64,000 bases of DNA from a virus (IMGVR_UViG_3300012662_000001:42558-106557); one strand, 5' to 3'; positions 10,503 to 63,742 are shown, counted from the stretch's first letter. Program-made: numbers and translations. Notes: generated from the letters alone by a model not told the origin.

Positions 10503-12065
10503 ATGGCAGAAAAGAAATTGGTTCCAGTCGAGAGGTTCAGGGAGGTTGCCCTGAACAACGGCTATGAAGTGTTTGATGAGACACAGGTGGCGGACTATGC
10601 CAAGGACGCTATGATGAAGTCTCAGGCAGGTGTTCTTTCAAAGGAGGACAAGGATGAGTTCGCCGTGGAGATGGCGGGACTTATGAAGGCTATCTGTGCG
10701 AATGGGGACGGCAGTCAGTGCACTCTCTACTATCGCAAGCCGCTTGTTGACTGGAAAGTTGACGGCAACGGTGTCGTGATGAAGGGGATCGCAGGAACGT
10801 ACACTGACACCCCTGAGAACAGAAAGTTGAATCGTGTGGGTCAGGCTTATGTTCCAAGTTCTGATGTTATTAAGTCTATCTATGGTGCTGGAAAGGAGGA
10901 CATCGAGGAGAATAAGGTTGATGCTGAGATGGCAGAACAGGCCTCTTTCATTAGAAAGTCCTGTGCCGTTGTGGCCGCTGATGCGGAGAGAAGACTTGCC
11001 CTTGGTGAGATTGATGAAAAGCTCTGCAAGTCAGTGAAGACCGAGGTTGGTATGTATCTGACTTCGTGGGGTGACACGCTTGATGAGTGCTGCGACGTTG
11101 TGAAGTCTGAGGACTTGGCTGACGTGCGTGAGGACTTGGCTGACGCCAAGGCGGCATTTGTTGACATTGTCAAGGCCGCTCACGGTCGCTATGCTGACAC
11201 CGCCAAGAATAGAAGACTGCATCGTGTTGGTCAGGAGTACGGCAAGGCGGCTCAGGAGAAGGACAAAGATGAGAAGAAGCAGGGTGCGACTGATGGTGTA
11301 TCAGGTGGGAAGCCGTCTCGCAATGGTGATTCCGTGAAACGTGATCTTTCCATTCTTGAGGAGAACAAGGATAGGATTGTTGAGAAGTACGGCCAGGAAG
11401 CCTATGATAGGAAAGTTGAAACCCTAAAGAAGGAGGGTGATGACTACGAGCAGAAGGAGACCGTGAAGCAACTCAAGGAGCGTGCTGACAAGCAGGACGC
11501 TGAGGAGGAGGAACGCAAAAAGGCTGATAAGAGAGCCAAGCGTCAGGAGAAGCGCAGAGCACGTCACGCAGCCAAGCGTGAGGCCGCTAAAAAGGCCAAG
11601 GAGGAAGTCGAAGTCAAGGCAAAGGCTGAAGTGGAGAAACAGCATCCTGAGGAGAAAGAACAACCTGAAAAGAATGCGAATAGCATTGAGTTGACTTCTA
11701 AGGGCATTAAGGACTATGTTGACAAGAATAGCAGTACCCCTGATGCTCGTATGCAAGCGATGGCCGCAGCCTATAAGGCACTCAAGGATAGTGGCAAGAG
11801 TAAGAAAGTTGACACGTTTGTTAAGGAGGTGTCAACTGGAAGTCCAAAAGTTGATATGGTTACACGGAAGTATGTGGAAGCTACTATGGCTGGAGCCACA
11901 CACGAGGAAGCCAAGGCGTTTGCTGAAAAGGAGTTCAACTTACTTGAGCACGGTATTCAGATGGCTCAGACTGCCATAGAGGACAATCTTCCTCAAGGTA
12001 TGGCACAGCATTTGATGAAGACAGCCTATGCCGTCTTTGATAAGGCGAAGTTTACAAAGAAGTAG
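10503..12065 (+). CDS. highly charged protein with two copies of a Y-x-D-x-x-x-N-R-[KR]-L-x-R-V-G-Q-x-Y motif and a K/E/R-rich low-complexity core; candidate packaged/internal protein
   Basis: YTDTPENRKLNRVGQAY and YADTAKNRRLHRVGQEYG. The C-terminal module is paralogous to the next gene. ATG at 10503 is chosen because the GTG at 10425 abuts the promoter box. Confidence 0.6.
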   Translation: MAEKKLVPVERFREVALNNGYEVFDETQVADYAKDAMMKSQAGVLSKEDKDEFAVEMAGLMKAICANGDGSQCTLYYRKPLVDWKVDGNGVVMKGIAGTYTDTPENRKLNRVGQAYVPSSDVIKSIYGAGKEDIEENKVDAEMAEQASFIRKSCAVVAADAERRLALGEIDEKLCKSVKTEVGMYLTSWGDTLDECCDVVKSEDLADVREDLADAKAAFVDIVKAAHGRYADTAKNRRLHRVGQEYGKAAQEKDKDEKKQGATDGVSGGKPSRNGDSVKRDLSILEENKDRIVEKYGQEAYDRKVETLKKEGDDYEQKETVKQLKERADKQDAEEEERKKADKRAKRQEKRRARHAAKREAAKKAKEEVEVKAKAEVEKQHPEEKEQPEKNANSIELTSKGIKDYVDKNSSTPDARMQAMAAAYKALKDSGKSKKVDTFVKEVSTGSPKVDMVTRKYVEATMAGATHEEAKAFAEKEFNLLEHGIQMAQTAIEDNLPQGMAQHLMKTAYAVFDKAKFTKK

Positions 12066-12077
12066 AAAAATTCACAG

Positions 12078-12107
12078 AGCACTCCTTGGAATCTCCTGAG
12101 GAGTGCT
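12078..12107 (+). terminator. hairpin AGCACTCC...GGAGTGCT abutting the next promoter
   Basis: 8-bp perfect stem followed by TATATTT. Confidence 0.5.
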
Positions 12108-12115
12108 TATATTTG
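12108..12115 (+). promoter_or_regulatory. -7 promoter box within a 19-nt element TTATATTTGCATTGTGAAA that recurs at 59496
   Basis: Identical 19-mer at 12107-12125 and 59496-59514. Confidence 0.55.
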
Positions 12116-12137
12116 CATTGTGAAAAAATTGAGAGTT

Positions 12138-51032: not shown

Positions 51033-51692
51033 ATGAATTCCACGATTAGATACATAATTGTTGGCGATAGTGAGACTGGAGGTCTTCCTAATAAGGACAA
51101 ACAGGCTTTCTATGACATTGCATTATGTGAATTTGCCTTTGTCGTCATAGATATTCAGGAAATGAAAGTGGTGGAGGAATGGAGCACTCTTTTCAGACCC
51201 TATAAGGACAATCTTGAATACAACCCCAAGGCACTTGAGGTCAACGGTCTTACGGTTGAGCAGTTGCAGGAGAGTGGTGATGACTTGAAGAACATTTACA
51301 AGGAGATGGTTACACTGTTTAAGAAGTATAAGAATCCTCGTATAGGGGCAGTGCTTGCAGGGCATAATTTTCAGCCGTTTGATATGCCTTTCTTGATTAA
51401 TATGTTTGAGTTCTGTGGCGACAATATCTGGAACTATGTCACATTTGTGGAGGATACGATGAAATTGGCTTGGTATCGTGCCACGGAGCAGGAGAATTAC
51501 AAGCTCGGAACGTGCTGTCGTATGGAGGGTGTTGACTTGGTTGATGCTCATCGTGCCCTTGCTGACACCAAGGCAAATGCTCTGTTGCTTCTAAAATATA
51601 TTTCCTATCTGCGTGGCTCTGGGGAGGGTTTAGATGTTGCGGCTCCAAGGATGAAGCCGTCTTCCTTTAGAGAGACGTTTCAACTTGTGTAG
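51033..51692 (+). CDS. DnaQ-like 3'-5' exonuclease (DEDDh)
   Basis: Exo I IVGDSETGGL, Exo II LAGHNFQPFDMPFL, Exo III HRALADTKA. Confidence 0.8.
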   Translation: MNSTIRYIIVGDSETGGLPNKDKQAFYDIALCEFAFVVIDIQEMKVVEEWSTLFRPYKDNLEYNPKALEVNGLTVEQLQESGDDLKNIYKEMVTLFKKYKNPRIGAVLAGHNFQPFDMPFLINMFEFCGDNIWNYVTFVEDTMKLAWYRATEQENYKLGTCCRMEGVDLVDAHRALADTKANALLLLKYISYLRGSGEGLDVAAPRMKPSSFRETFQLV

Positions 51693-51694
51693 TG

Positions 51695-54600
51695 ATGATT
51701 GAGTTTAATGAGAATAATAGTCTTTCTTTTCGGCAGTTGGATAGCATTATAGACACTGTGACGAGAATAGTACAGAACCTCCCTGTAAAGGCCGTAAATC
51801 AGCTTATGGAAGCATATAAGGGAGATCAGGACGCTATGCTGTCAGAGATATTTCGTCAGACGGAGAATGTTCTGAAGTTGAACACCACACTGGAGACGGA
51901 GCGTTTGTCCTATGTGGATCAACTGACTGAGAGTATGGATGATTCTCTGAAAATAATGTCATATAACTACTTTAAGACCACAATGCTTCCTAACTTTAGA
52001 CAGGGGTGGAGGAATCTTGAATGGGGTAATATGATTCAACTGTATCCGAATAGTGGCTATCTTGCGGCTCGTTCTCACGGAAAGTGTTTTCTGGCTGGAA
52101 CTCATATATTGATGGCTGACTGGACAGTGAAGAGCGTGGAGGATATCTATCCTGGAATGGAAGTGATGGGTATGGACTTCACTCCGAGAAAGGTTCTTAC
52201 ACGGCATATCGGTCGGTCACAGATGTTTACCGTGCATCAGGAGAACGGTATTTCCTATACCGTGAATAGATTTCACATTCTCTGTCTATGGGATACGAAG
52301 AGGAAGCACTATGTTGAGGTTCCGATGGGAAACTTCTTGAAGTATCCTCAGGAGAAGCAGAATAGGTTTAGGGGGTATAGAGTGTTTTCGAGTGACAATC
52401 CAATACTGGAATATTCACCTATAACCGTTGAATCGTATGGTGATGGCTCATATTATGGCTTTGCCTGTGATGGTGACCATAAGTTTCTTCTGGAGGATAA
52501 TACAGTTGTTCACAACTCCTATGAATTCTGTATGGCGTTTCCTTTGTGGAGAATGTATTCCTATCGTAGACCGAACTTTATGAAGCCTGATATTCCGGAT
52601 AATAAGAATAGAAAGGAAACGTGTATTATAACCAATACGGAAACACTCGGTAAGGAACATCTGGATAAGGTTAAGGAGGAGATTCATACCAATGAAGCAC
52701 TTTCAGCGGTGCTTAATCCGAACGGCAAGGCTTCTCTTGGTGCTACTGGCTTTGAATGTGAGAATGGATCCAAGTTGCATCTTAGAGGAAAGGACGGCTT
52801 TATCCGAGGTCTTCACGTGGGGGCGGCTGTGTCTGATGACCTCCCTGATGATAGTTCCATTTATAGTCTTGAACAAAGAGAAAAATTGAGAGATTTATTC
52901 AAGGGTGCTATCACGCCTATTGTGGAGCCGTATGGTTACAATATCGTGGACGGCTGTGTTACGCCTGATACACTTGTGCTAACGGCTGATGGCATTAAGG
53001 AAATTGGGCAGCTTGCGCCTGTTGGTCTTGACTCTGAACGTGGTTACTATGACTGGAAAGGTCAGGCGTATAATGGTCAGAATCTGGAGAATGTGTTGTC
53101 TTATTATGTGAATGGCAATACTGAGACAATTCGTGTGATACTTGACAGAGGGTTTGAATTAGAGACAAGTCACGTTCATCCAGTGCTTGTGTGTGACACG
53201 GATGGTAGGTTTGTGTGGCGTAAGTGTGAGGATCTTTCTGTTGGTGACTATGTGGCCGTGAAAATTGGTTCTAATGTATGGGGCAAGCCTTTGAATATTG
53301 ATAGAGAGGAATTGTATCAGATGGGAATGTGTGTGGCTGATGGGTGCTTGAGTGAAGATAGAATAACAATAGCCAAAAAGGTTGATGGAATACGAAAGTA
53401 CTTTATTGATGAACAGGGCTGGCATCCTGTGAAAGGTGCTACACACGATGATATTTACTTTAGGTGGTATAGACAGGAGAAACGTGAACTTTGGCATTCT
53501 CTTGGTTATGAATATGGTCTGTATAGTCACACTAAATCCATTCCAGAGAAAGTGCTTTCAGCTTCCAAGGCTGACTTGTGTGCATTTCTTTCAGGGTATT
53601 TTGACGGTGATGGATGTTTAACAAGAAATGATAGAGATCATTATCATATCAGTTGTTTTTCTGTAAGTAAACGACTAATTCAGCAGATTCAGTTCGTGCT
53701 TTTGAATATGGGCATAGTTTCACACGTTGCCTATAAGAAATGTCAATCCACTGAAAAGGTTAAGACAGATAGAATGGGATATCTATTGCGTATAAATTCT
53801 CAGAATATGATTCAGAAATTTATGCGTGAAATTGGTTTTCCTCATTCGGGCAAGGCGGATAAATATGTTGACTCAGAAGTTAAGGTGAATAATGTCTGTC
53901 AATACGGTGTGCCTTATCAACGTGACTTGTTTAAGCGAATAAGAAAACAGATTCACTTGACTGATGAAGATAAGAAGCAGTTTGGGTTGGAATCATTTAA
54001 GACACAGAATAGAACAGAGATTCCTATCTATACTGTGAGTGAAATGCAGAGATTGTCCAAGTGGGTTGAAAATTCAGAGTTGCGAAATGAAGATGCTTCT
54101 ATCTTTTTGAGTAATGCAAGATTAGGGTATGTTTTCTTACCTGTGAAGTGCTTGGAACAGGGGCAGAGTGTTACAGTTGATTTTTCAATGCAGGAGACAC
54201 ATTCCTTTGTTTCCAATGGAATTATTTCTCATAACACGCCGTATCAGGCCCAAGATCTCTATTATGAACTGAAGCAGGATCCAAAATTTATGGTATTTGA
54301 ATATCCAGCGATATTTCCTGATGGTAGACTTCTGGCTCCTGACCGTTTCACGTTTGACAAGTTAATGGAGGAGAAGAAGTCCGTTGGTACGCTTGTGTTC
54401 AGTCGTGAATATCTTGTTGTTCCCATTTCGGATGATTCCACCATATTTCCTATGGAGATATTAATGCGAAGCACGATAGGAATGGAGAATGTGCGGCTTG
54501 TGGATAACATTGAATCGTTTCCATTCAAGTTGTCCAGAGTGGTTGTGGGGTGTGACTTTGCCGTGTCAGGAAACGTGGGTGCTGACTACACCTGTTACAC

Positions 54601-55075
54601 GGTGTGGGGGAAGGACTTGAACGGTTCCTATTATCTTCTGTATATCTATCGGGAAAAGGGTCTTTCCCATAATGAGCAGATAAACAAGATAGAGTATTTG
54701 AATACGGTGTTCAAGCCGAATGAGATTGTGGTGGAGAACAATGGCTTTCAGTCCATTCTTGCTGATATGTGCGTGCAGAGAGGAATAAGGAATATATTTC
54801 CGTTTACCACCACTTCGGGGAACAAGAAGGACTTGCGAACAGGGTGGGCGTCACTTGCGGCCTTATTTGAGCGAGGTGACATACGATGTCCATATCACCC
54901 TGACACACGACAGAGAATAGACACTATGTTCGGGGAGTTTACATCCATTGCATTCCGTTCTGATAGAGGTACGTTGGAATCCATCAGTGGTCACGATGAC
55001 ACGGTGTCTTCCTCGTTTATGGCAATAAACAGATTACGTGAATCGGCTCTTCAGATCAAGGTCGATGCAGTATAA
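51695..55075 (+). CDS. terL: terminase large subunit precursor containing two inteins
   Basis: The spliced Walker A is LAARSHGK/SYEF. The nuclease-domain C-terminus reads VVGCDFAVSG...VVENNGFQS...GHDDTVSS. Confidence 0.8.
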   Translation: MIEFNENNSLSFRQLDSIIDTVTRIVQNLPVKAVNQLMEAYKGDQDAMLSEIFRQTENVLKLNTTLETERLSYVDQLTESMDDSLKIMSYNYFKTTMLPNFRQGWRNLEWGNMIQLYPNSGYLAARSHGKCFLAGTHILMADWTVKSVEDIYPGMEVMGMDFTPRKVLTRHIGRSQMFTVHQENGISYTVNRFHILCLWDTKRKHYVEVPMGNFLKYPQEKQNRFRGYRVFSSDNPILEYSPITVESYGDGSYYGFACDGDHKFLLEDNTVVHNSYEFCMAFPLWRMYSYRRPNFMKPDIPDNKNRKETCIITNTETLGKEHLDKVKEEIHTNEALSAVLNPNGKASLGATGFECENGSKLHLRGKDGFIRGLHVGAAVSDDLPDDSSIYSLEQREKLRDLFKGAITPIVEPYGYNIVDGCVTPDTLVLTADGIKEIGQLAPVGLDSERGYYDWKGQAYNGQNLENVLSYYVNGNTETIRVILDRGFELETSHVHPVLVCDTDGRFVWRKCEDLSVGDYVAVKIGSNVWGKPLNIDREELYQMGMCVADGCLSEDRITIAKKVDGIRKYFIDEQGWHPVKGATHDDIYFRWYRQEKRELWHSLGYEYGLYSHTKSIPEKVLSASKADLCAFLSGYFDGDGCLTRNDRDHYHISCFSVSKRLIQQIQFVLLNMGIVSHVAYKKCQSTEKVKTDRMGYLLRINSQNMIQKFMREIGFPHSGKADKYVDSEVKVNNVCQYGVPYQRDLFKRIRKQIHLTDEDKKQFGLESFKTQNRTEIPIYTVSEMQRLSKWVENSELRNEDASIFLSNARLGYVFLPVKCLEQGQSVTVDFSMQETHSFVSNGIISHNTPYQAQDLYYELKQDPKFMVFEYPAIFPDGRLLAPDRFTFDKLMEEKKSVGTLVFSREYLVVPISDDSTIFPMEILMRSTIGMENVRLVDNIESFPFKLSRVVVGCDFAVSGNVGADYTCYTVWGKDLNGSYYLLYIYREKGLSHNEQINKIEYLNTVFKPNEIVVENNGFQSILADMCVQRGIRNIFPFTTTSGNKKDLRTGWASLAALFERGDIRCPYHPDTRQRIDTMFGEFTSIAFRSDRGTLESISGHDDTVSSSFMAINRLRESALQIKVDAV
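52085..52516 (+). mobile_element. mini-intein 1 (144 aa) inserted in the terminase Walker A P-loop
   Basis: Starts CFLAGTHILMADW, ends YYGFACDGDHKFLLEDNTVVHN, followed by Ser+1. Excision restores GKS. Confidence 0.8.
52955..54235 (+). mobile_element. intein 2 (427 aa) with LAGLIDADG homing endonuclease domain
   Basis: Starts CVTPDTLVLTADG. DOD motifs LYQMGMCVADGC and AFLSGYFDGDGC are present. Ends THSFVSNGIISHN, followed by Thr+1. Confidence 0.85.
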
Positions 55076-58157: not shown

Positions 58158-58418
58158 ATGATTAAGGTAAAGATTTTTAATGAGAGTAAGTTCTTGGAAC
58201 CGAAGTATCTTCCGGAATACAAGAGCTTGGGTGCGTCAGGCGTGGATCTTAGAGCTGACATTGATGAGGACATTGTACTGCATCCTATGCAGCGAATGCT
58301 GATTTCGACAGGGTTGAGGATGGCTATTCCGCAGAACTATGAAGCGCAGGTTCGTTCTCGTTCAGGGCTTACGGTGAAGAACGGTGTTATTGTTCTTTCT
58401 CCAGGTACTATTGACGCT
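58158..58418 (+). CDS. dut: dUTPase exon 1
   Basis: GASGVDLRA (motif 1), VRSRSG (motif 2) and SPGTIDA (first half of motif 3). The frame then runs into a stop after 4 more codons. Confidence 0.8.
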
Positions 58419-58464
58419 GGACTTTTATCATAATATGTCAATGTCAATAGTTCCATAAAATATT

Positions 58465-58472
58465 TATATTTG
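58465..58472 (+). promoter_or_regulatory. -7 box TATATTTG inside the intron, upstream of the HNH ORF
   Basis: 21 nt upstream of the ATG at 58493. Confidence 0.4.
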
Positions 58473-58492
58473 CACATAAATTGAGTGTAAAT

Positions 58493-59143
58493 ATGAAACA
58501 AGGTAAAGAGTATAATTGTATTTGTCCAATTTGTGGTGTAGCTTTTTACACAAAGCCTTCCAGATTAAAAAGAACTAAGAATGGTGTATGCTGTTCTATG
58601 TTATGTGGTCGTAAATTGAGAGCGAAATTTATGCTTGGTATGGGGAATCATCAATATGGTTTAACTGGAAAATTAAATTCGAGCTATAAGCATGATGAAA
58701 AAATAAATAATGCAGGGTATCGAATGATAAATGTTCCAGGACATCCAAAAGGAGCTAAAGATCGCAGGTATGATGAAATGACTTATATCTTGGAACACAG
58801 GCTTGTAATTGAACAAAATTATAATTTCTTTCCTAAAGAGTTTTTCGAAATGAAAAATGGTTGGTTTGTTTTGAAGGATTGTTATGATGTTCATCATATA
58901 AATCATGATAAATTGGATAATCGGTTAGAAAATTTAGTGATTATTACCAGAGGGGAGCATACAACACTTCATAATTTTGAAAAACAAATAATAAGGGACT
59001 GTAAGACAGGGCGTATAATTGGCGTCATTAAACAGGGTGAATTGCTGGAAAATCCAGAAGTGGACAATCAGCAGCCAAGTCAAGATGGCAACATTTTGAA
59101 AGGTTCAACGACTAACAACCGAACCCATGAATGTGGGCAGTAA
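58493..59143 (+). CDS. intron-encoded HNH homing endonuclease
   Basis: VHHINHDKLDNRLENLVIITRGEHTTLH plus an N-terminal CxxC...CC...C zinc finger. Confidence 0.8.
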   Translation: MKQGKEYNCICPICGVAFYTKPSRLKRTKNGVCCSMLCGRKLRAKFMLGMGNHQYGLTGKLNSSYKHDEKINNAGYRMINVPGHPKGAKDRRYDEMTYILEHRLVIEQNYNFFPKEFFEMKNGWFVLKDCYDVHHINHDKLDNRLENLVIITRGEHTTLHNFEKQIIRDCKTGRIIGVIKQGELLENPEVDNQQPSQDGNILKGSTTNNRTHECGQ

Positions 59144-59260
59144 TGTTGACACGAGTGCCCTGTGCAGGTAAAACTGTAAAGATATAGTCTGAACTCTATG
59201 TATAACTTAATATTGAAGATAGAGAATATTTGGATAAAGAGCCAAATAGATAACAAAATG

Positions 59261-59455
59261 GATTATAGAGGTGTTATTGGTATTCCTTTGGCCAATTTGG
59301 GTGATGAGGACTTTGTGATTCACAGAGGGGATCGCATTGCACAGCTTGTCTTTCAGAAAGTGGAAAAGGCTTGGTTTGAGGGTGTCGGTTCTGTTGAAGC
59401 ACTTGGTTTCACTGATCGTGGTGACGGTGGTTTTGGGCATACAGGGGTGAAGTAG
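59261..59455 (+). CDS. dut: dUTPase exon 2
   Basis: [14 protein letters not shown] (motif 3), GDRIAQLVF (motif 4) and [10 protein letters not shown] (motif 5). The spliced product is 151 aa. Confidence 0.8.
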
Positions 59456-59496
59456 AAAAATTCAGGAATATTCCTTGGATATCTAAGATAAGTGAT

Positions 59497-59504
59497 TATA
59501 TTTG
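59497..59504 (+). promoter_or_regulatory. -7 box within the second copy of TTATATTTGCATTGTGAAA
   Basis: Identical 19-mer to 12107-12125. Confidence 0.55.
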
Positions 59505-59540
59505 CATTGTGAAATTTTAACAACTAAATCAAAAACGATT

Positions 59541-60140
59541 ATGGAACAGAAAGAATTGTCCGTAAGGATGAAGATCCGCAAGTTCAAGAATGACGCTGAC
59601 AAGTTGTCAGAAATCATCGAATCAGAAACGTCCACTGAACTGGAGAAGAAAGTGGCCTCAGAGTACCTTGCCAAGTTGCAGGAAGCCGAGCAACCTGAAC
59701 AATCAGAAGCACAGATAGCCGCTCCGGAGGAGACGACACTCTTCCCAGAGGCAGAAGAGGAGAAACCAACTCCTAAGAAGGAGGAACCTATTAGTTCTGA
59801 ACTTACTCCTGAGGAAGTTGAACGTCTTGATGCGGCTGAGAAGAAATTTGATGAGCGTCAGGCCAATCGCAAGACACCGTCCAAGGCGGACAAGAATATG
59901 CGTGAGGAACGCAAGAAGATACGTTCAACCGCCAATCTGCACGAGGGTAAGAGAGAGAACCTTGAGGAATCCACAGAGGTTCCTGGTCTGAAAGTCGGTT
60001 CCACTGTAAAGGTGGGTGACGAGGAGTGTTCCGTTATTCGTGTCTATCGTAGCACTGACGGCAAGGAGAAGTGTATGATCAAGATTGGAGACGGCAAGAC
60101 TGTCAAGAAGCGTGTCACTTCAGTGACACTCGTAAAATAG
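59541..60140 (+). CDS. hypothetical protein: charged disordered region plus small C-terminal beta domain
   Basis: ORF; ATG at 59541 chosen because the ATG at 59502 lies inside the promoter box. Confidence 0.5.
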   Translation: MEQKELSVRMKIRKFKNDADKLSEIIESETSTELEKKVASEYLAKLQEAEQPEQSEAQIAAPEETTLFPEAEEEKPTPKKEEPISSELTPEEVERLDAAEKKFDERQANRKTPSKADKNMREERKKIRSTANLHEGKRENLEESTEVPGLKVGSTVKVGDEECSVIRVYRSTDGKEKCMIKIGDGKTVKKRVTSVTLVK

Positions 60141-60149
60141 TTAGGTTTT

Positions 60150-60884
60150 ATGGTTACGGATTCAGGAACCATAATCCTTATCAAGGGGGTCAGTGGAAGC
60201 GGTAAATCCACAAGGGTTTATTGCTTCCTTGATTTCTTGGAAAGCATTGGTATGGAACTGAAACCGTACCAATTTGTGAACATACTTGGACAGACGCAGG
60301 AGATAGGTCTATACTCTGAGGAGTTGAATATGCTCTTTTTGGGGAAATTTTATAACGACAATGGTGTTCGTAGATGGCAGGGTCTGGACGCTGTCACAGG
60401 GCGACTGCATACGGCTGAGGGTCTTTCCTATTTTCTGAAATGGGCAGGTCAACATAAACTGAATGTGGTGCTGGAGGGTGCTGGAACTTCCGTGACGTGG
60501 CGATTGCGTCCGATGGAGATATGTGCCGAGTATGAATATCTAAACATCCTTTATCTGGTCTATACGTTTAAGTTGGAGCAGTATGATGACTATATCAGGA
60601 GAATAGAGTATCGTTCCGGTAAGGCTCCGAAAAGCGACGCTATGTGGCGGAAACGTAAGGGGTTTGAATCCGACTATACCCAGACTGTCGCTGAAGCGAA
60701 GGACTTGAATGCGGCAGGAGCGGACATTGTTATCAAGTATAATTTATTTGATGCCGTGCCGTGGGATCTTGGTGTAAGCATTATGCAGTATTTCGGTCTT
60801 GATGAATTGTGCAATGAGTTTAGGCAGTTTGTGGGGAATGGCGGTTACATTGAACAGAATTCTTTTGAAAACATTGGGAAATGA
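60150..60884 (+). CDS. P-loop kinase (candidate 5-hmdU DNA kinase or nucleotide kinase)
   Basis: Walker A IKGVSGSGKST; ATGA-coupled to the next gene. Confidence 0.55.
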   Translation: MVTDSGTIILIKGVSGSGKSTRVYCFLDFLESIGMELKPYQFVNILGQTQEIGLYSEELNMLFLGKFYNDNGVRRWQGLDAVTGRLHTAEGLSYFLKWAGQHKLNVVLEGAGTSVTWRLRPMEICAEYEYLNILYLVYTFKLEQYDDYIRRIEYRSGKAPKSDAMWRKRKGFESDYTQTVAEAKDLNAAGADIVIKYNLFDAVPWDLGVSIMQYFGLDELCNEFRQFVGNGGYIEQNSFENIGK

Positions 60885-61891
60885 GCAGGATAGTTCCAAA
60901 TGACAATCTGACATATTTCTTCTATTGGTGTTGTGAACGAATGAATATATTCTGGAAACGCTACAATGGTGAGAAGCAACCGTGGACTGATGATGAAATA
61001 TTGCGACAGTATAAGTTCACGAATGTGTATCGTGTGCTGGATAGATCAAGTCAGTATATGCTTCGGAACGTTATTTATAACGGTAAGCAGTATTCTTCTG
61101 AGGATATGTTCTTTCGCATTCTACTTTACAAGTATTTTAATCTTCCTGATACGTGGGATGCTTTGATTAAAGAGTTCAGTGATGTTACATACGACACTGG
61201 ATGGGAGAATATTGCACGTTTTCTTGATGATAGAATCAGGCAGGACATCACTATTTATTCCAATGCCTTTATGCTGACAGGGTGGTTTTATACGTTGCCG
61301 AGATATGCGTGCATTCGTGGGAAGTCAAAGCATAGAGGATACTTTGAAGTCTTTAGACAGAGAATATTCGATAACGGCAGGATTGACGTTTTCCTTCGTG
61401 CCACGAGGTTTGAGGAACTGTTTAATCTGTTCAAGGAGTTGGAGCCGTTTAGTGATTTTATGGCACAGCAGTACTGTCTTGACTTAAACTATTCCCCTCT
61501 ATACAATTTTACGGAGAATGAGTTTGTGGCGGTCGGTCCAGGAAGCAGGAGGGGGATTCAGTTTGCCTTTAAGGGGGATCACAAGGATGACGGTGAAGTT
61601 GTTATACGGTGGACACAGGAGCACTTTGAGGAACTGATGACACGATTTTGTCACGATTCAGGTATGGTCTGGAATCCATTGCCGTGGGAGCCAGTGCCGA
61701 CGTTGACAAATATTCAGAACTGTTTCTGTGAACTATCGAAATACGCCAAGGCTATGGGTGTGACATTTAATGGGAAGTCCAGAGGGCGTGTGAAGAATGT
61801 GTATAGTGCATTAAAATCTGAAATTCCTTATATGTTTCCAAGGAAATGGAACGTGGAGATGCCGTTAAAAGGGCAGATAGAAACTTATTAA
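60881..61891 (+). CDS. candidate DNA base-hypermodification protein (resembles the aGPT-pyrophosphorylase / 5-hmdU-kinase-helical families; assignment from recall)
   Basis: N-terminal block IFWKRYNGEKQPWTDDEILRQYKFTNVYRVLDRSSQY; located between the kinase and TS-like genes. Confidence 0.4.
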   Translation: MSRIVPNDNLTYFFYWCCERMNIFWKRYNGEKQPWTDDEILRQYKFTNVYRVLDRSSQYMLRNVIYNGKQYSSEDMFFRILLYKYFNLPDTWDALIKEFSDVTYDTGWENIARFLDDRIRQDITIYSNAFMLTGWFYTLPRYACIRGKSKHRGYFEVFRQRIFDNGRIDVFLRATRFEELFNLFKELEPFSDFMAQQYCLDLNYSPLYNFTENEFVAVGPGSRRGIQFAFKGDHKDDGEVVIRWTQEHFEELMTRFCHDSGMVWNPLPWEPVPTLTNIQNCFCELSKYAKAMGVTFNGKSRGRVKNVYSALKSEIPYMFPRKWNVEMPLKGQIETY

Positions 61892-61906
61892 AAATAAGAA
61901 ACGATT

Positions 61907-63034
61907 ATGTATTTTGAATTTGATAATCTCAGTCAGGCACTTGTTGGTCTGTCGTTGAGTCTTAACGCCAATGGTGTGTGGACAAAGAGGGGAACCAATC
62001 CAGCAGGAAACGGGTGTCTGGAATTTCCGGAAGCGGTTCTTATAAAGATAGAAAATCCATTGAATAGGTATGTCTTTGTTCCGGAACGCAAGTGGAACAG
62101 GACACTTGGGTGGATTGAGTCACTTTGGATTGCCAGAGGGGATAACTCTTTGGAAATGCCGTCATCCTATGTTAAGAATCTGTTGACATTCTCCGATGAC
62201 GGTGAGACAATGCGTGCAGGATACGGTCCGAGGATTCGTGGGTTTGGTGGCCATCTTTGGAATAAGGCTATTCGGGATGTGGATGGTTCAGTGCTATATT
62301 GGATGGAAAAACAGTATGATTCCAGGAATAGTTGTCATAATCTTGGTACGGTGGATCAGCTGAAGTTTGTAGTGGATAAGTTTAAGCAGGATCCAACAAC
62401 AAGAGAGGCCGTCATCACCATTCACGATCCTATGGCCGATGACTTTAATGGTAATGAAATCCTCAGGACGAAGGACACCCCTTGCACTCGTTCCATTCAC
62501 TTTATGATTGTGAACGGCAAGATGAACTGTTATGTGGATATGAGATCCAATGACCTGTTCTGGGGTTTCAGTGCTGTTAACGTTTTCAACTTCACCTTGA
62601 TGCAGGAATATGTCGCTGCGATGGTTGGTGTGCCTGTTGGTGTGTATTTCCATAAGGTGGACAATCTGCATATCTACGAGGGTTCTCTTCCTATGCTTCA
62701 GAGCATAATTGCAGTCAATGAGACGCCACGAGGTGTTGAGGTGTGGTCAGATTGGTATAGATTCTCGGAATGCAGTGATTGGCACGGCTATAAGCATACC
62801 TACAGAACTTTGGAAGGCTTTGATGCACGAATTGGTCTACTGTCCAATTTTGAACGTGGAATGCGTGGTGTTGATGACTTGCCGTATAGTAATGATGAGG
62901 CTCTGGACGAGATAGAAGCCAAGTTCTGGGACGAACCGATGTTTAGGGACTGGGCAAAGGTTATCTATCGCAAGTGGTCAAAGGACACGACCGTGACATT
63001 TGACAATCCGTATCTGACAAAGTTATTTGTCTGA
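61907..63034 (+). CDS. thymidylate synthase / pyrimidine hydroxymethylase superfamily enzyme (candidate dUMP hydroxymethylase)
   Basis: DQLKFVVDKFKQDPTTREAVITIHDP, the catalytic Cys context TKDTPCTRSIHFMIV, MRSNDLFWGFSAVNVFNFTLMQ and DNLHIYE are collinear with ThyA motifs. At 375 aa it is longer than ThyA. Confidence 0.7.
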   Translation: MYFEFDNLSQALVGLSLSLNANGVWTKRGTNPAGNGCLEFPEAVLIKIENPLNRYVFVPERKWNRTLGWIESLWIARGDNSLEMPSSYVKNLLTFSDDGETMRAGYGPRIRGFGGHLWNKAIRDVDGSVLYWMEKQYDSRNSCHNLGTVDQLKFVVDKFKQDPTTREAVITIHDPMADDFNGNEILRTKDTPCTRSIHFMIVNGKMNCYVDMRSNDLFWGFSAVNVFNFTLMQEYVAAMVGVPVGVYFHKVDNLHIYEGSLPMLQSIIAVNETPRGVEVWSDWYRFSECSDWHGYKHTYRTLEGFDARIGLLSNFERGMRGVDDLPYSNDEALDEIEAKFWDEPMFRDWAKVIYRKWSKDTTVTFDNPYLTKLFV

Positions 63035-63101
63035 AGTTACTTTGTAGAAACCATAAGAACAGCCGTGCAACCTCTGGTCGGGAAGCCTATTTAATCGTAC
63101 C

Positions 63102-63131
63102 TTGATGGAATTGAAATTGATGGAATTGAAA
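63102..63131. repeat. perfect 15-bp tandem duplication TTGATGGAATTGAAA x2 (TGATGG occurs three times)
   Basis: Copies at 63102-63116 and 63117-63131, with a third TGATGG at 63134. Confidence 0.8.
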
Positions 63132-63202
63132 CGTGATGGGTAAGGAGGAAGTTCGAGACTTCTCACGGTTGCAAGTTTAACCAAGTTAAAAATGATTTCG
63201 TT

Positions 63203-63742
63203 ATGAACTACAAAAAGATTGACTATCTACTTCAGATGAAGCAGATACAGAGACTTCCAAATGTTCCTCACCACAGAAGTTACAATATTCTTGAGCACGG
63301 CTTTGTGGTCGGTATGCTCTTCAGGTGGTTTGCTTCCGCCTGTGATGTATCCTATGATATCAACGTGTGGGACAAGGTGCTTATGCACGACTATTTGGAA
63401 GCGTTCACAGGAGACCTGAACTTTGTTGTTAAGAATCTCACTGAAAAAACTTCAAGTGCGTGGGCTACGATAGAGAAGGAAGTCTGTGACCGTGACACCG
63501 CCCTGAACCACTATTCAGATGAAGCCATTAAGTCCGCTATGACAGAGGAGCAGCACACCCTCTTTAAGGCGTGTGACTATCTTGATTTGTGGATATTCTG
63601 CAAGCAGGAGGAAGCACTTGGCAACACCACGACTGGAAACAAGGCTGTTATAGACAACTGCAAGAGACTCATCTGTAATCTTTGTGGGCAGGACAGAAAA
63701 TGGCTTCCAATCTTTGATTTTATGGCTAAATACACAGCGTAA
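63203..63742 (+). CDS. HD-domain phosphohydrolase (YfbR-like 5'-deoxynucleotidase family)
   Basis: HHRSYNILEHGFVVG ... LMHDYLEAFTGD (the H...HD...D pattern). Confidence 0.7.
   Translation: MNYKKIDYLLQMKQIQRLPNVPHHRSYNILEHGFVVGMLFRWFASACDVSYDINVWDKVLMHDYLEAFTGDLNFVVKNLTEKTSSAWATIEKEVCDRDTALNHYSDEAIKSAMTEEQHTLFKACDYLDLWIFCKQEEALGNTTTGNKAVIDNCKRLICNLCGQDRKWLPIFDFMAKYTA

Follow-up and report, generated by a model that had tools for sequence, protein, structure and literature searches.

The dUTPase gene and its intron

The 64,000-nucleotide stretch of viral DNA IMGVR_UViG_3300012662_000001:42558-106557, hereafter the window, carries a dUTPase gene (dut) that is divided by an insert of 842 nucleotides (nt). 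All coordinates are counted in the window, and the genes and intron parts described lie on the + strand. Exon 1 (58158..58418, 87 codons) encodes motifs 1 and 2 and the GTIDA of motif 3; its 3' end reads ...GGT ACT ATT GAC GCT, with the last base at 58418. Exon 2 (59261..59455) starts with GAT TAT AGA GGT, the first base being 59261, and encodes the DYRG of motif 3, motifs 4 and 5, and the stop codon. The insert (58419..59260) is preceded by the exon base U58418, has G59260 (omega-G) as its last base, and contains an open reading frame (ORF; 58493..59143) for an HNH homing endonuclease of 216 amino acids. We conclude that the insert is a group I intron, presumably mobile and self-splicing, which separates DYRG from the codon that follows the catalytic Asp of motif 3 and may be regulated in a T4-like manner, a reading to which we assign a probability of roughly 0.88.

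If translation ran from exon 1 into the insert, the frame would continue GGA CTT TTA TCA and end at a UAA stop codon (58431..58433), five codons inside the intron, and an early in-frame stop three to nine codons past the splice site is present in all related dUTPase introns examined. Joining 58158-58418 to 59261-59455 in frame yields 151 codons and a 151-amino-acid dUTPase. The joined product matches the Pfam dUTPase profile in a single stretch covering positions 5-129 of 129 (E 1e-27) as well as the dUTPase family PHROG 135 (E 6e-51), and its alignment with the solved dUTPase 8y1q runs unbroken through PGTIDADYRG (E 1e-36). Alternative splice sites, which would produce GTID-M-DYRG or IDNKMDYRG, either break the motif spacing or give an intron whose last base is not G. 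An initial annotation of this locus had placed motifs 1 and 2 and half of motif 3 (GTIDA) up to 58418, DYRG in frame from 59261, and between them an 842-nt insert preceded by a U and with G as its final base; every one of these statements agrees with the sequence.

Scanning viral contigs (designated by L numbers) with the spliced dUTPase protein identified relatives both with and without the insert. Two close relatives have an uninterrupted dUTPase (93% identity in L001 and 89% in L002) and are syntenic with the window, with 83-89% identity over ~8 kb. Their alignments to the window end at 58415 and 58414, respectively, and restart at 59261, such that these intron-less alleles, a comparison called for in the initial annotation, lack exactly the 842-nt intron. 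Across the junction their sequence is GAC AGT GAT TAT and that of the window GAC GCT / GAT TAT; the junction sequence of L001 is ACCATTGACAGTGATTATAGAGG. L005 and L006, in turn, match exon 1 only and carry an intron that is 94% identical. When annotated phages were searched with the intron core by a sensitive DNA comparison, a match was obtained to crAssphage (Carjivirus communis, BK010471.1), whose core, like those of cr50_1 and cr1_1, is homologous to that of the window, with 72-75% identity over ~240 nt. A metagenome scan with GACGCTGGACTTTTA was uninformative, with one true intron locus (L276) among the matches listed.

The insert itself was matched by the Rfam covariance model RF00028 at 58960-59207 with a score of 64.7 bits (E 4e-14), above the gathering score of 50, and the match spans the full model from 1 to 253. 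This is the sole Rfam match within the 64 kb window, and it answers the suggestion in the initial annotation that a covariance-model search be run. The GC content of the intron is 33%, compared to 44% for the window. Rfam, Pfam, covariation, and syntenic absence all agree with the earlier claim of a dUTPase gene split by a group I intron with an HNH endonuclease.

Guide sequence and ribozyme core

The internal guide sequence (59015..59027) lies directly 5' of P3, ~600 nt downstream of the 5' splice site. It consists of a P10 strand, AUAAUU (59015-59020), and a P1 strand, GGCGUCA (59021-59027), the latter of which pairs at 7/7 positions with the exon sequence UGACGCU (58412..58418) to form P1; in the splice-site G.U pair, U58418 is opposite G59021. 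The P10 strand pairs with GAUUAU (59261-59266), the six bases that open exon 2, and 95% of the corresponding cells are paired in an alignment of ten distinct dUTPase-intron cores (alignment A3). When eight distinct introns were compared, P1 displayed compensatory changes at exon positions -2, -3, and -7. Written as exon strand (-7 to -1) and guide, P1 is UGACGCU/GGCGUCA in the window, AGACGCU/GGCGUCU in L183, CGACGCU/GGUGUCG in L102, AGACUCU/GGAGUCU in L122, L152, and L192, AGACUAU/GUAGUCU in crAssphage, and AGACUGU/GCAGUCU in cr50_1.

It had been noticed earlier that two copies of GTCAAT (58437-58448) are complementary to the exon sequence ATTGAC (58410-58415), yet no convincing P1 could be built from them. 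The complementarity is present as described, but P1 lies elsewhere, with its guide strand at 59021-59027. A local P1 formed from GTCAAT and ATTGAC would leave GCU unpaired and the splice site without its U.G pair, whereas the downstream guide pairs fully and covaries. Also rejected were the P2 and P2.1 helices that the Rfam alignment places at 58964-59014, which is ORF sequence; because ORF-less relatives begin only ~11 nt 5' of the guide, this intron family has no P2.

The ribozyme core, P3-P9.1, extends from 59033 to 59248 and consists of P3 (59033-38/59157-62), P4 (59043-48/59068-73), P5 (59053-56/59061-64), P6 (59074-76/59102-04), P6a (59080-87/59092-99), P7 (59108-14/59185-90, with a bulged C59109), P7.1 (59116-19/59145-48), P7.1a (59124-27/59134-37), P8 (59163-67/59174-78), P9 (59195-99/59219-23), and P9.1 (59227-33/59242-48). 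J8/7 and the 3' strand of P7 are formed by AAGAUAUAGUCU (59179..59190), whose columns are invariant in A3; the sequence previously singled out as the J8/7-P7 core, AAGATATAGTC, is indeed found at 59179-59189. RNAalifold on A3 gave P3, P4, P5, P6, P6a, a two-part arm between P7 and P3', P8, P9, and P9.1, and the P7 pseudoknot and P10 were placed by hand before pairs were counted.

Covariation across the ten introns is extensive. In A3, 95.4% of the cells at paired positions can pair, compared to 34-43% when partners are slid, and 36 of the 63 pairs have changed on both sides; none of 500 shuffles reached the observed values. The closing pair of P7 (columns 95/218) alternates between A-U and G-C across the usual bulge. 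The two-part arm (59116-59148) shows changes on both sides in 7/8 of its pairs, and P2 is absent. Group I introns of subgroup IA have extra helices, either P7.1/P7.2 or P7.1/P7.1a, between P7 and P3', and the combination of a P7.1/P7.1a arm with no P2 fits an IA-like intron.

From this architecture, we infer that the intron splices by the standard route. Exon positions 58412-18 would pair with the guide at 59021-27 while AUAAUU holds exon 2 via P10, the P3-P9.1 core would fold around the guanosine site in P7, and two transesterifications would then ligate the exons into the message for the intact 151-residue dUTPase. We also considered whether the insert might no longer be spliced, being an intron in decay or simply an inserted HNH gene, in which case there would be two dUTPase fragments or none and dut would be a pseudogene. 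Nothing speaks for this directly, although the window ORF does end earlier in the core than in most homologues. We regard decay as highly improbable: the core helices, guide, P10, splice-site U.G pair, and omega-G are all intact and covary across relatives, both exons are open and have kept their conserved motifs, and the 94%-identical copy in another contig likewise has intact in-frame exons and an open ORF.

The HNH gene and its candidate control elements

The intron ORF matches HNH_3 (PF13392) with 34.7 bits (cut-off 24.8; E 1.4e-8) and eleven PHROG families, ten of which are annotated as HNH endonucleases, and it is 44% identical to gp35 of crAssphage (E 2e-42). An alignment of the HNH family (A4) shows the invariant columns HH...N...N...EH..H. 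With respect to the activity and cleavage type of the enzyme, it counts against a confident assignment that a search of solved structures with the HNH protein found no meaningful relative and that none of the solved HNH structures detectably matches the protein in sequence. The intron HNH proteins in A4 have one to three N-terminal zinc-finger-like modules of the form C..C...C...C, one in the window and three in L164, the number varying by lineage.

The ORF and the ribozyme overlap. Starting in loop L1, the ORF continues through P10', the guide, P3-P6a, and the 5' strand of P7 and stops inside P7.1; its tail, ...GRIIGVIKQGELLENPEVDNQQPS..., is the translation of P10', the guide, and P3-P6, and 129 nt of the window intron are both coding and structural. 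In A4, ORF ends are scattered, falling after the 5' strand of P6, in P7.1, after P8, after P7', or in P9.1. Because the ORFs end at such different points of the ribozyme, the tail is best explained as read-through of sequence constrained as RNA and not as a protein domain. Overlap of this type is a trait of the family. The conserved P4-P6 core pattern occurs in at least 119 viral contigs (L089-L207), and in 58 of the 121 matches listed for it, an ORF that begins upstream and has 100 or more codons enters the core, always in the same frame. These ORFs vary in type, with several endonuclease families represented, and share a ...ELLE.PE.DNQQPS tail.

ORF-less introns occupy the same site in dut. 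Those of L169 (251 nt) and L192 (273 nt) have an L1 of ~10 nt, with the splice site ~11 nt from the guide. The HNH gene must therefore have been inserted into L1, and its arrival is what separated the P1 strands by 600 nt. L169 (2314-2567) and L200 (3452-3705) have near-identical dut exons and intron cores, but the L169 intron has no ORF and the 929-nt L200 intron has an HNH ORF in L1; the two contigs offer a natural comparison for gain or loss of the ORF. One identical ORF-less version is found in ~30 small contigs, again among the matches listed. Related introns also occupy a second dUTPase site 7 nt upstream (GTI/DxDYRG) in L097, L148, L105 (= L085), and L159, where the guides, GUCGUG or GUCGUU, match the second-site exon instead. 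We infer that the HNH enzyme is active and would nick or cut intron-less dut alleles such as those of L001 and L002, after which repair would copy the intron in (homing); an indirect sign of this, and the only one, is that close relatives differ in the presence of the intron. Since the ORF spans the guide and half of the core, its translation on the pre-mRNA would be expected to unfold the ribozyme.

Upstream of the ORF is TATATTTG (58465..58472), 20 nt before its ATG. The -7 promoter consensus of Bacteroidota is TAnnTTTG, and we consider it credible that the box is a promoter element of the intron ORF. TATATTTG occurs 15 times in the window, where 2.3 copies are expected (6.5x); at 10 of the 15, the ATG of an ORF of at least 60 amino acids follows within 100 nt, compared to 30% of random positions. 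The gene after dut, with its box at 59497, is among these ten. A TAnnTTTG box is also found 18-22 nt before the ORF ATG in the diverged introns of L183, L152, and crAssphage. Two of the boxes in the window, at 12108 and 59497, are embedded in a shared repeat of ~70 nt (12060-12135 and 59455-59525) that reads gaagtagaaaaattca...tccttgga...TATATTTGcattgtgaaa and looks like a reused promoter cassette.

The same sequence is part of a predicted 13-bp hairpin (58463..58497), whose 5' arm (58463-58475) contains the box and whose 3' arm (58485-58497) contains the ORF AUG. Its folding free energy is -11.7 kcal/mol (z -4.6), and a hairpin of equal stability was seen in 0/200 shuffles. In a long read-through RNA, the calculated unpaired probability of the AUG region is 0.0, as opposed to 0.87 in an RNA that starts 14 nt upstream of the AUG, past the box. 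The arrangement suggests a switch in which the AUG would be buried on read-through pre-mRNA by a hairpin whose 5' arm is the box, whereas RNAs initiated at an intron-internal promoter would be missing that arm and the ORF would be translatable, following the logic of T4 I-TevI. In crAssphage, the same layout of box and AUG hairpin is built from a different sequence (z -3.3), and L164 and L200 have related versions of the hairpin.

Several observations pull in the other direction. The looser pattern TAnnTTTG shows no enrichment across the window (51 matches, 42 expected), so that only the exact TATATTTG stands out; there is no clear -33 element upstream of the intron box; and the AUG-burying hairpin is not universal, with a mean unpaired probability of 0.45 across 21 intron-borne HNH relatives, among which AUG sequestration fails as a family-wide rule. 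A scan for sigma-70 promoters and terminators likewise returned nothing exceeding chance. Apart from the hairpin result, these findings, together with the missing box in L102, L200, and L122, would be compatible with an intron that has no promoter of its own, its HNH ORF being translated only from dut pre-mRNA or excised intron and its box an accident of AT-rich sequence. We think this unlikely, although it deserves to be taken seriously, in that it leaves unexplained why exact TATATTTG is over-represented and marks gene starts and why the box recurs at the same distance from the ATG in homologues only 44-70% identical; moreover, the AUG is fully paired on read-through RNA, and therefore another way of exposing it would be needed. 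The initial annotation's idea that the intron has its own promoter, with a box at 58465, thus holds as regards the box, its enrichment, its association with ORF starts, and its recurrence in homologues, and stays short of proof as regards promoter function.

Closer to the splice site, the GTCAAT repeat belongs to an exon-complementary element, GTCAAT-GTCAATAGTTCC (58437..58454). Its distal part, GUCAAUAGUUCC (58443-58454), is a 12-nt inverted copy of exon positions 58404-58415, and the helix predicted between the two has a free energy of -16.3 kcal/mol (z -4.4; 0/200 shuffles were equally stable). The corresponding exon-intron helix is a perfect 12 bp in L120. Counterparts exist in L183, L102, and L164, where changes on one arm are matched on the other, some of them as G.U pairs; that of L200 is weaker, and those of L122, L152, and crAssphage are not significant. 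Because the helix overlaps the exon strand of P1, it would compete with P1. At -16 kcal/mol it is stabler than P1 alone and could hinder splicing, which counts against the splicing model.

Two roles for this element can be envisaged. It could act in RNA, pairing with exon positions -15 to -4 in competition with P1 and parking the 5' splice site until it is displaced by the ribosome or the guide, as a timer or a link to translation. Consistent with this, the helix is stable and in L120 perfect, matched arm changes occur in L183, L102/L200, and L164, the copy is inverted in every case, and the ORF-less introns, whose P1 is local, do not have the element; in addition, the G.U pairs of L102 and L183 preserve RNA pairing while breaking DNA identity. 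On the other hand, the independent lineages are few, three of the introns have no significant version, and the position of the element would equally suit a promoter-proximal DNA site. We put this reading forward tentatively, at somewhat less than even odds.

Alternatively, the element could act in DNA, as an operator. It would then be a partial copy of the homing site, lying across the -33 region of the intron promoter, through which the endonuclease would repress its own gene. Homing-site-like operators that overlap intron promoters are known from T4 (PMC2988022). In the window, L183, L102, and L200, the element precedes the promoter-like box by 10-25 nt, and in L164 it overlaps the box even though 62 nt separate it from the splice site; furthermore, an enzyme, homing site, and operator that coevolve would mimic covariation. 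Differences of the G.U type between the two copies are nevertheless ill-suited to simple sequence identity, and we view an operator as possible and somewhat less probable than a role in RNA.

A more far-reaching proposal is that the inverted copy forms an anti-P1 helix in RNA and, together with the stop codon in the loop and the AUG hairpin, makes dUTPase splicing dependent on ribosome passage or on timing. We consider this doubtful. Such a helix would have arisen because insertion of the ORF moved the guide 600 nt away, and if the proposal were true, a splicing switch would be restricted to the ORF-bearing members of a large family of phage introns in which the guide and half of the core are also protein-coding.

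Relation to known introns and genomic neighbourhood

The closest described counterpart is the dut intron of crAssphage, in which gp34 is annotated as 'putative Dut dUTPase, contains intron insertion' and gp35 as 'putative intron-encoded HNH endonuclease'; the split dut gene has been mentioned in the literature (PMC7551546), and group I introns occurring densely in crAss-like phages have been described (PMC7886860). The two introns share the insertion point in dut (GTLDY/GYRG compared to GTIDA/DYRG), an ORF in L1 that runs into the core, a guide just 5' of P3, and the TATATTTG box with the AUG hairpin. They differ in that P10 is a full 6 bp in the window and weak in crAssphage, and in that the ORFs end at different core positions. 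The window dUTPase is only ~50% identical to any annotated crAss-like dUTPase, and no annotated phage matches the window at the DNA level. That the window encodes a tail sheath, and is thus myovirus-like, rules out a crAss-like phage. Judged by sequence, the window intron is a homologue of the already annotated crAssphage dut intron with its HNH gene, and its mechanism would be the standard one among phage group I introns that carry homing endonucleases. What the present analysis adds is the long-range P1, the placement of the ORF in L1, the series of ORF-less and ORF-bearing forms, and the two candidate regulatory structures. Bacillus phage literature that names dUTPase together with introns concerns introns in terminase and polymerase genes and not in dut.

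The arrangement also resembles that of T4 td/I-TevI, as well as nrdD/I-TevII and nrdB/I-TevIII, where a nucleotide-metabolism gene is interrupted by a group I intron within a conserved catalytic region. I-TevI belongs to the GIY-YIG enzymes and its ORF is in the P6a loop; the enzyme in the window is of the HNH type and its ORF is in L1, such that the guide itself is coding and the P1 strands are far apart. The T4 introns have internal promoters, a hairpin that blocks ORF translation on read-through RNA, and an ORF end that overlaps structured RNA, and removal of the hairpin led to less splicing (PMC2988022). The layout in the window, with its candidate intron-internal promoter, ORF-silencing hairpin, and promoter-proximal site resembling the homing site, would correspond to that of T4 (PMC2988022), although the candidate promoter is Bacteroidota-like and those of T4 are late promoters. 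The T4-type features found here, the box and the hairpin, are statistically unusual and recur in crAssphage, and they are not universal.

Similarity extends to the psbA intron of cyanophage S-PM2, which is 78% identical to the window intron over 90 nt of the core from P1' to P7. Because the core is shared and S-PM2 psbA is annotated as a two-piece join, the psbA intron belongs to the same broad phage intron family, the one also matched in at least 119 viral contigs. It resides in a different host gene and has no ORF, and its homing enzyme, F-CphI, is free-standing and adjoins the gene. HNH enzymes inside phage group I introns, as in the window, include the nicking endonucleases I-HmuI of SPO1, I-BasI, and I-TwoI. 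SPO1 DNA contains hydroxymethyl-uracil, a modification paralleled by the 5-hmdU kinase genes beside the window dut. I-PfoP3I is another HNH nicking endonuclease encoded in a phage group I intron (PMC3428280).

Those kinase genes are part of a cluster that follows dut (59541-63742) and encodes a 199-residue protein of unknown function, the HMUD2 5-hmdU DNA kinase, HMUDK_hel, a ThyA-like protein, and a YfbR-like HD 5'-deoxynucleotidase, a content that suggests a thymidine hypermodification pathway. It had been proposed that splicing could gate this base-modification cluster. The proposal finds no support, because the downstream genes follow their own TATATTTG box (59497), and splicing would affect dUTPase production only. 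A second selfish element resides elsewhere in the window: the large terminase ORF (51692-55075, 1127 amino acids) contains an intein with a homing-endonuclease domain, with matches to Hom_end_hint at residues 132-200, Intein_splicing at 476-848, LAGLIDADG_3 at 630-715, and Terminase_6C at 953-1114.

For annotation, these results convert two dUTPase fragments and an HNH ORF into one spliced gene plus an intron-encoded endonuclease. They leave the current understanding of group I introns unchanged and carry the practical warning that in the dUTPase intron family the guide sequence may be located 600 nt from the splice site, within a coding region. The dut intron of crAssphage extends beyond the crAss-like phages, as the same intron occupies the same site in an unrelated, sheath-bearing tailed phage and in many other viral contigs, and the forms with an ORF, without an ORF, and at the second site constitute a natural series on the invasion of a ribozyme loop by a homing gene.

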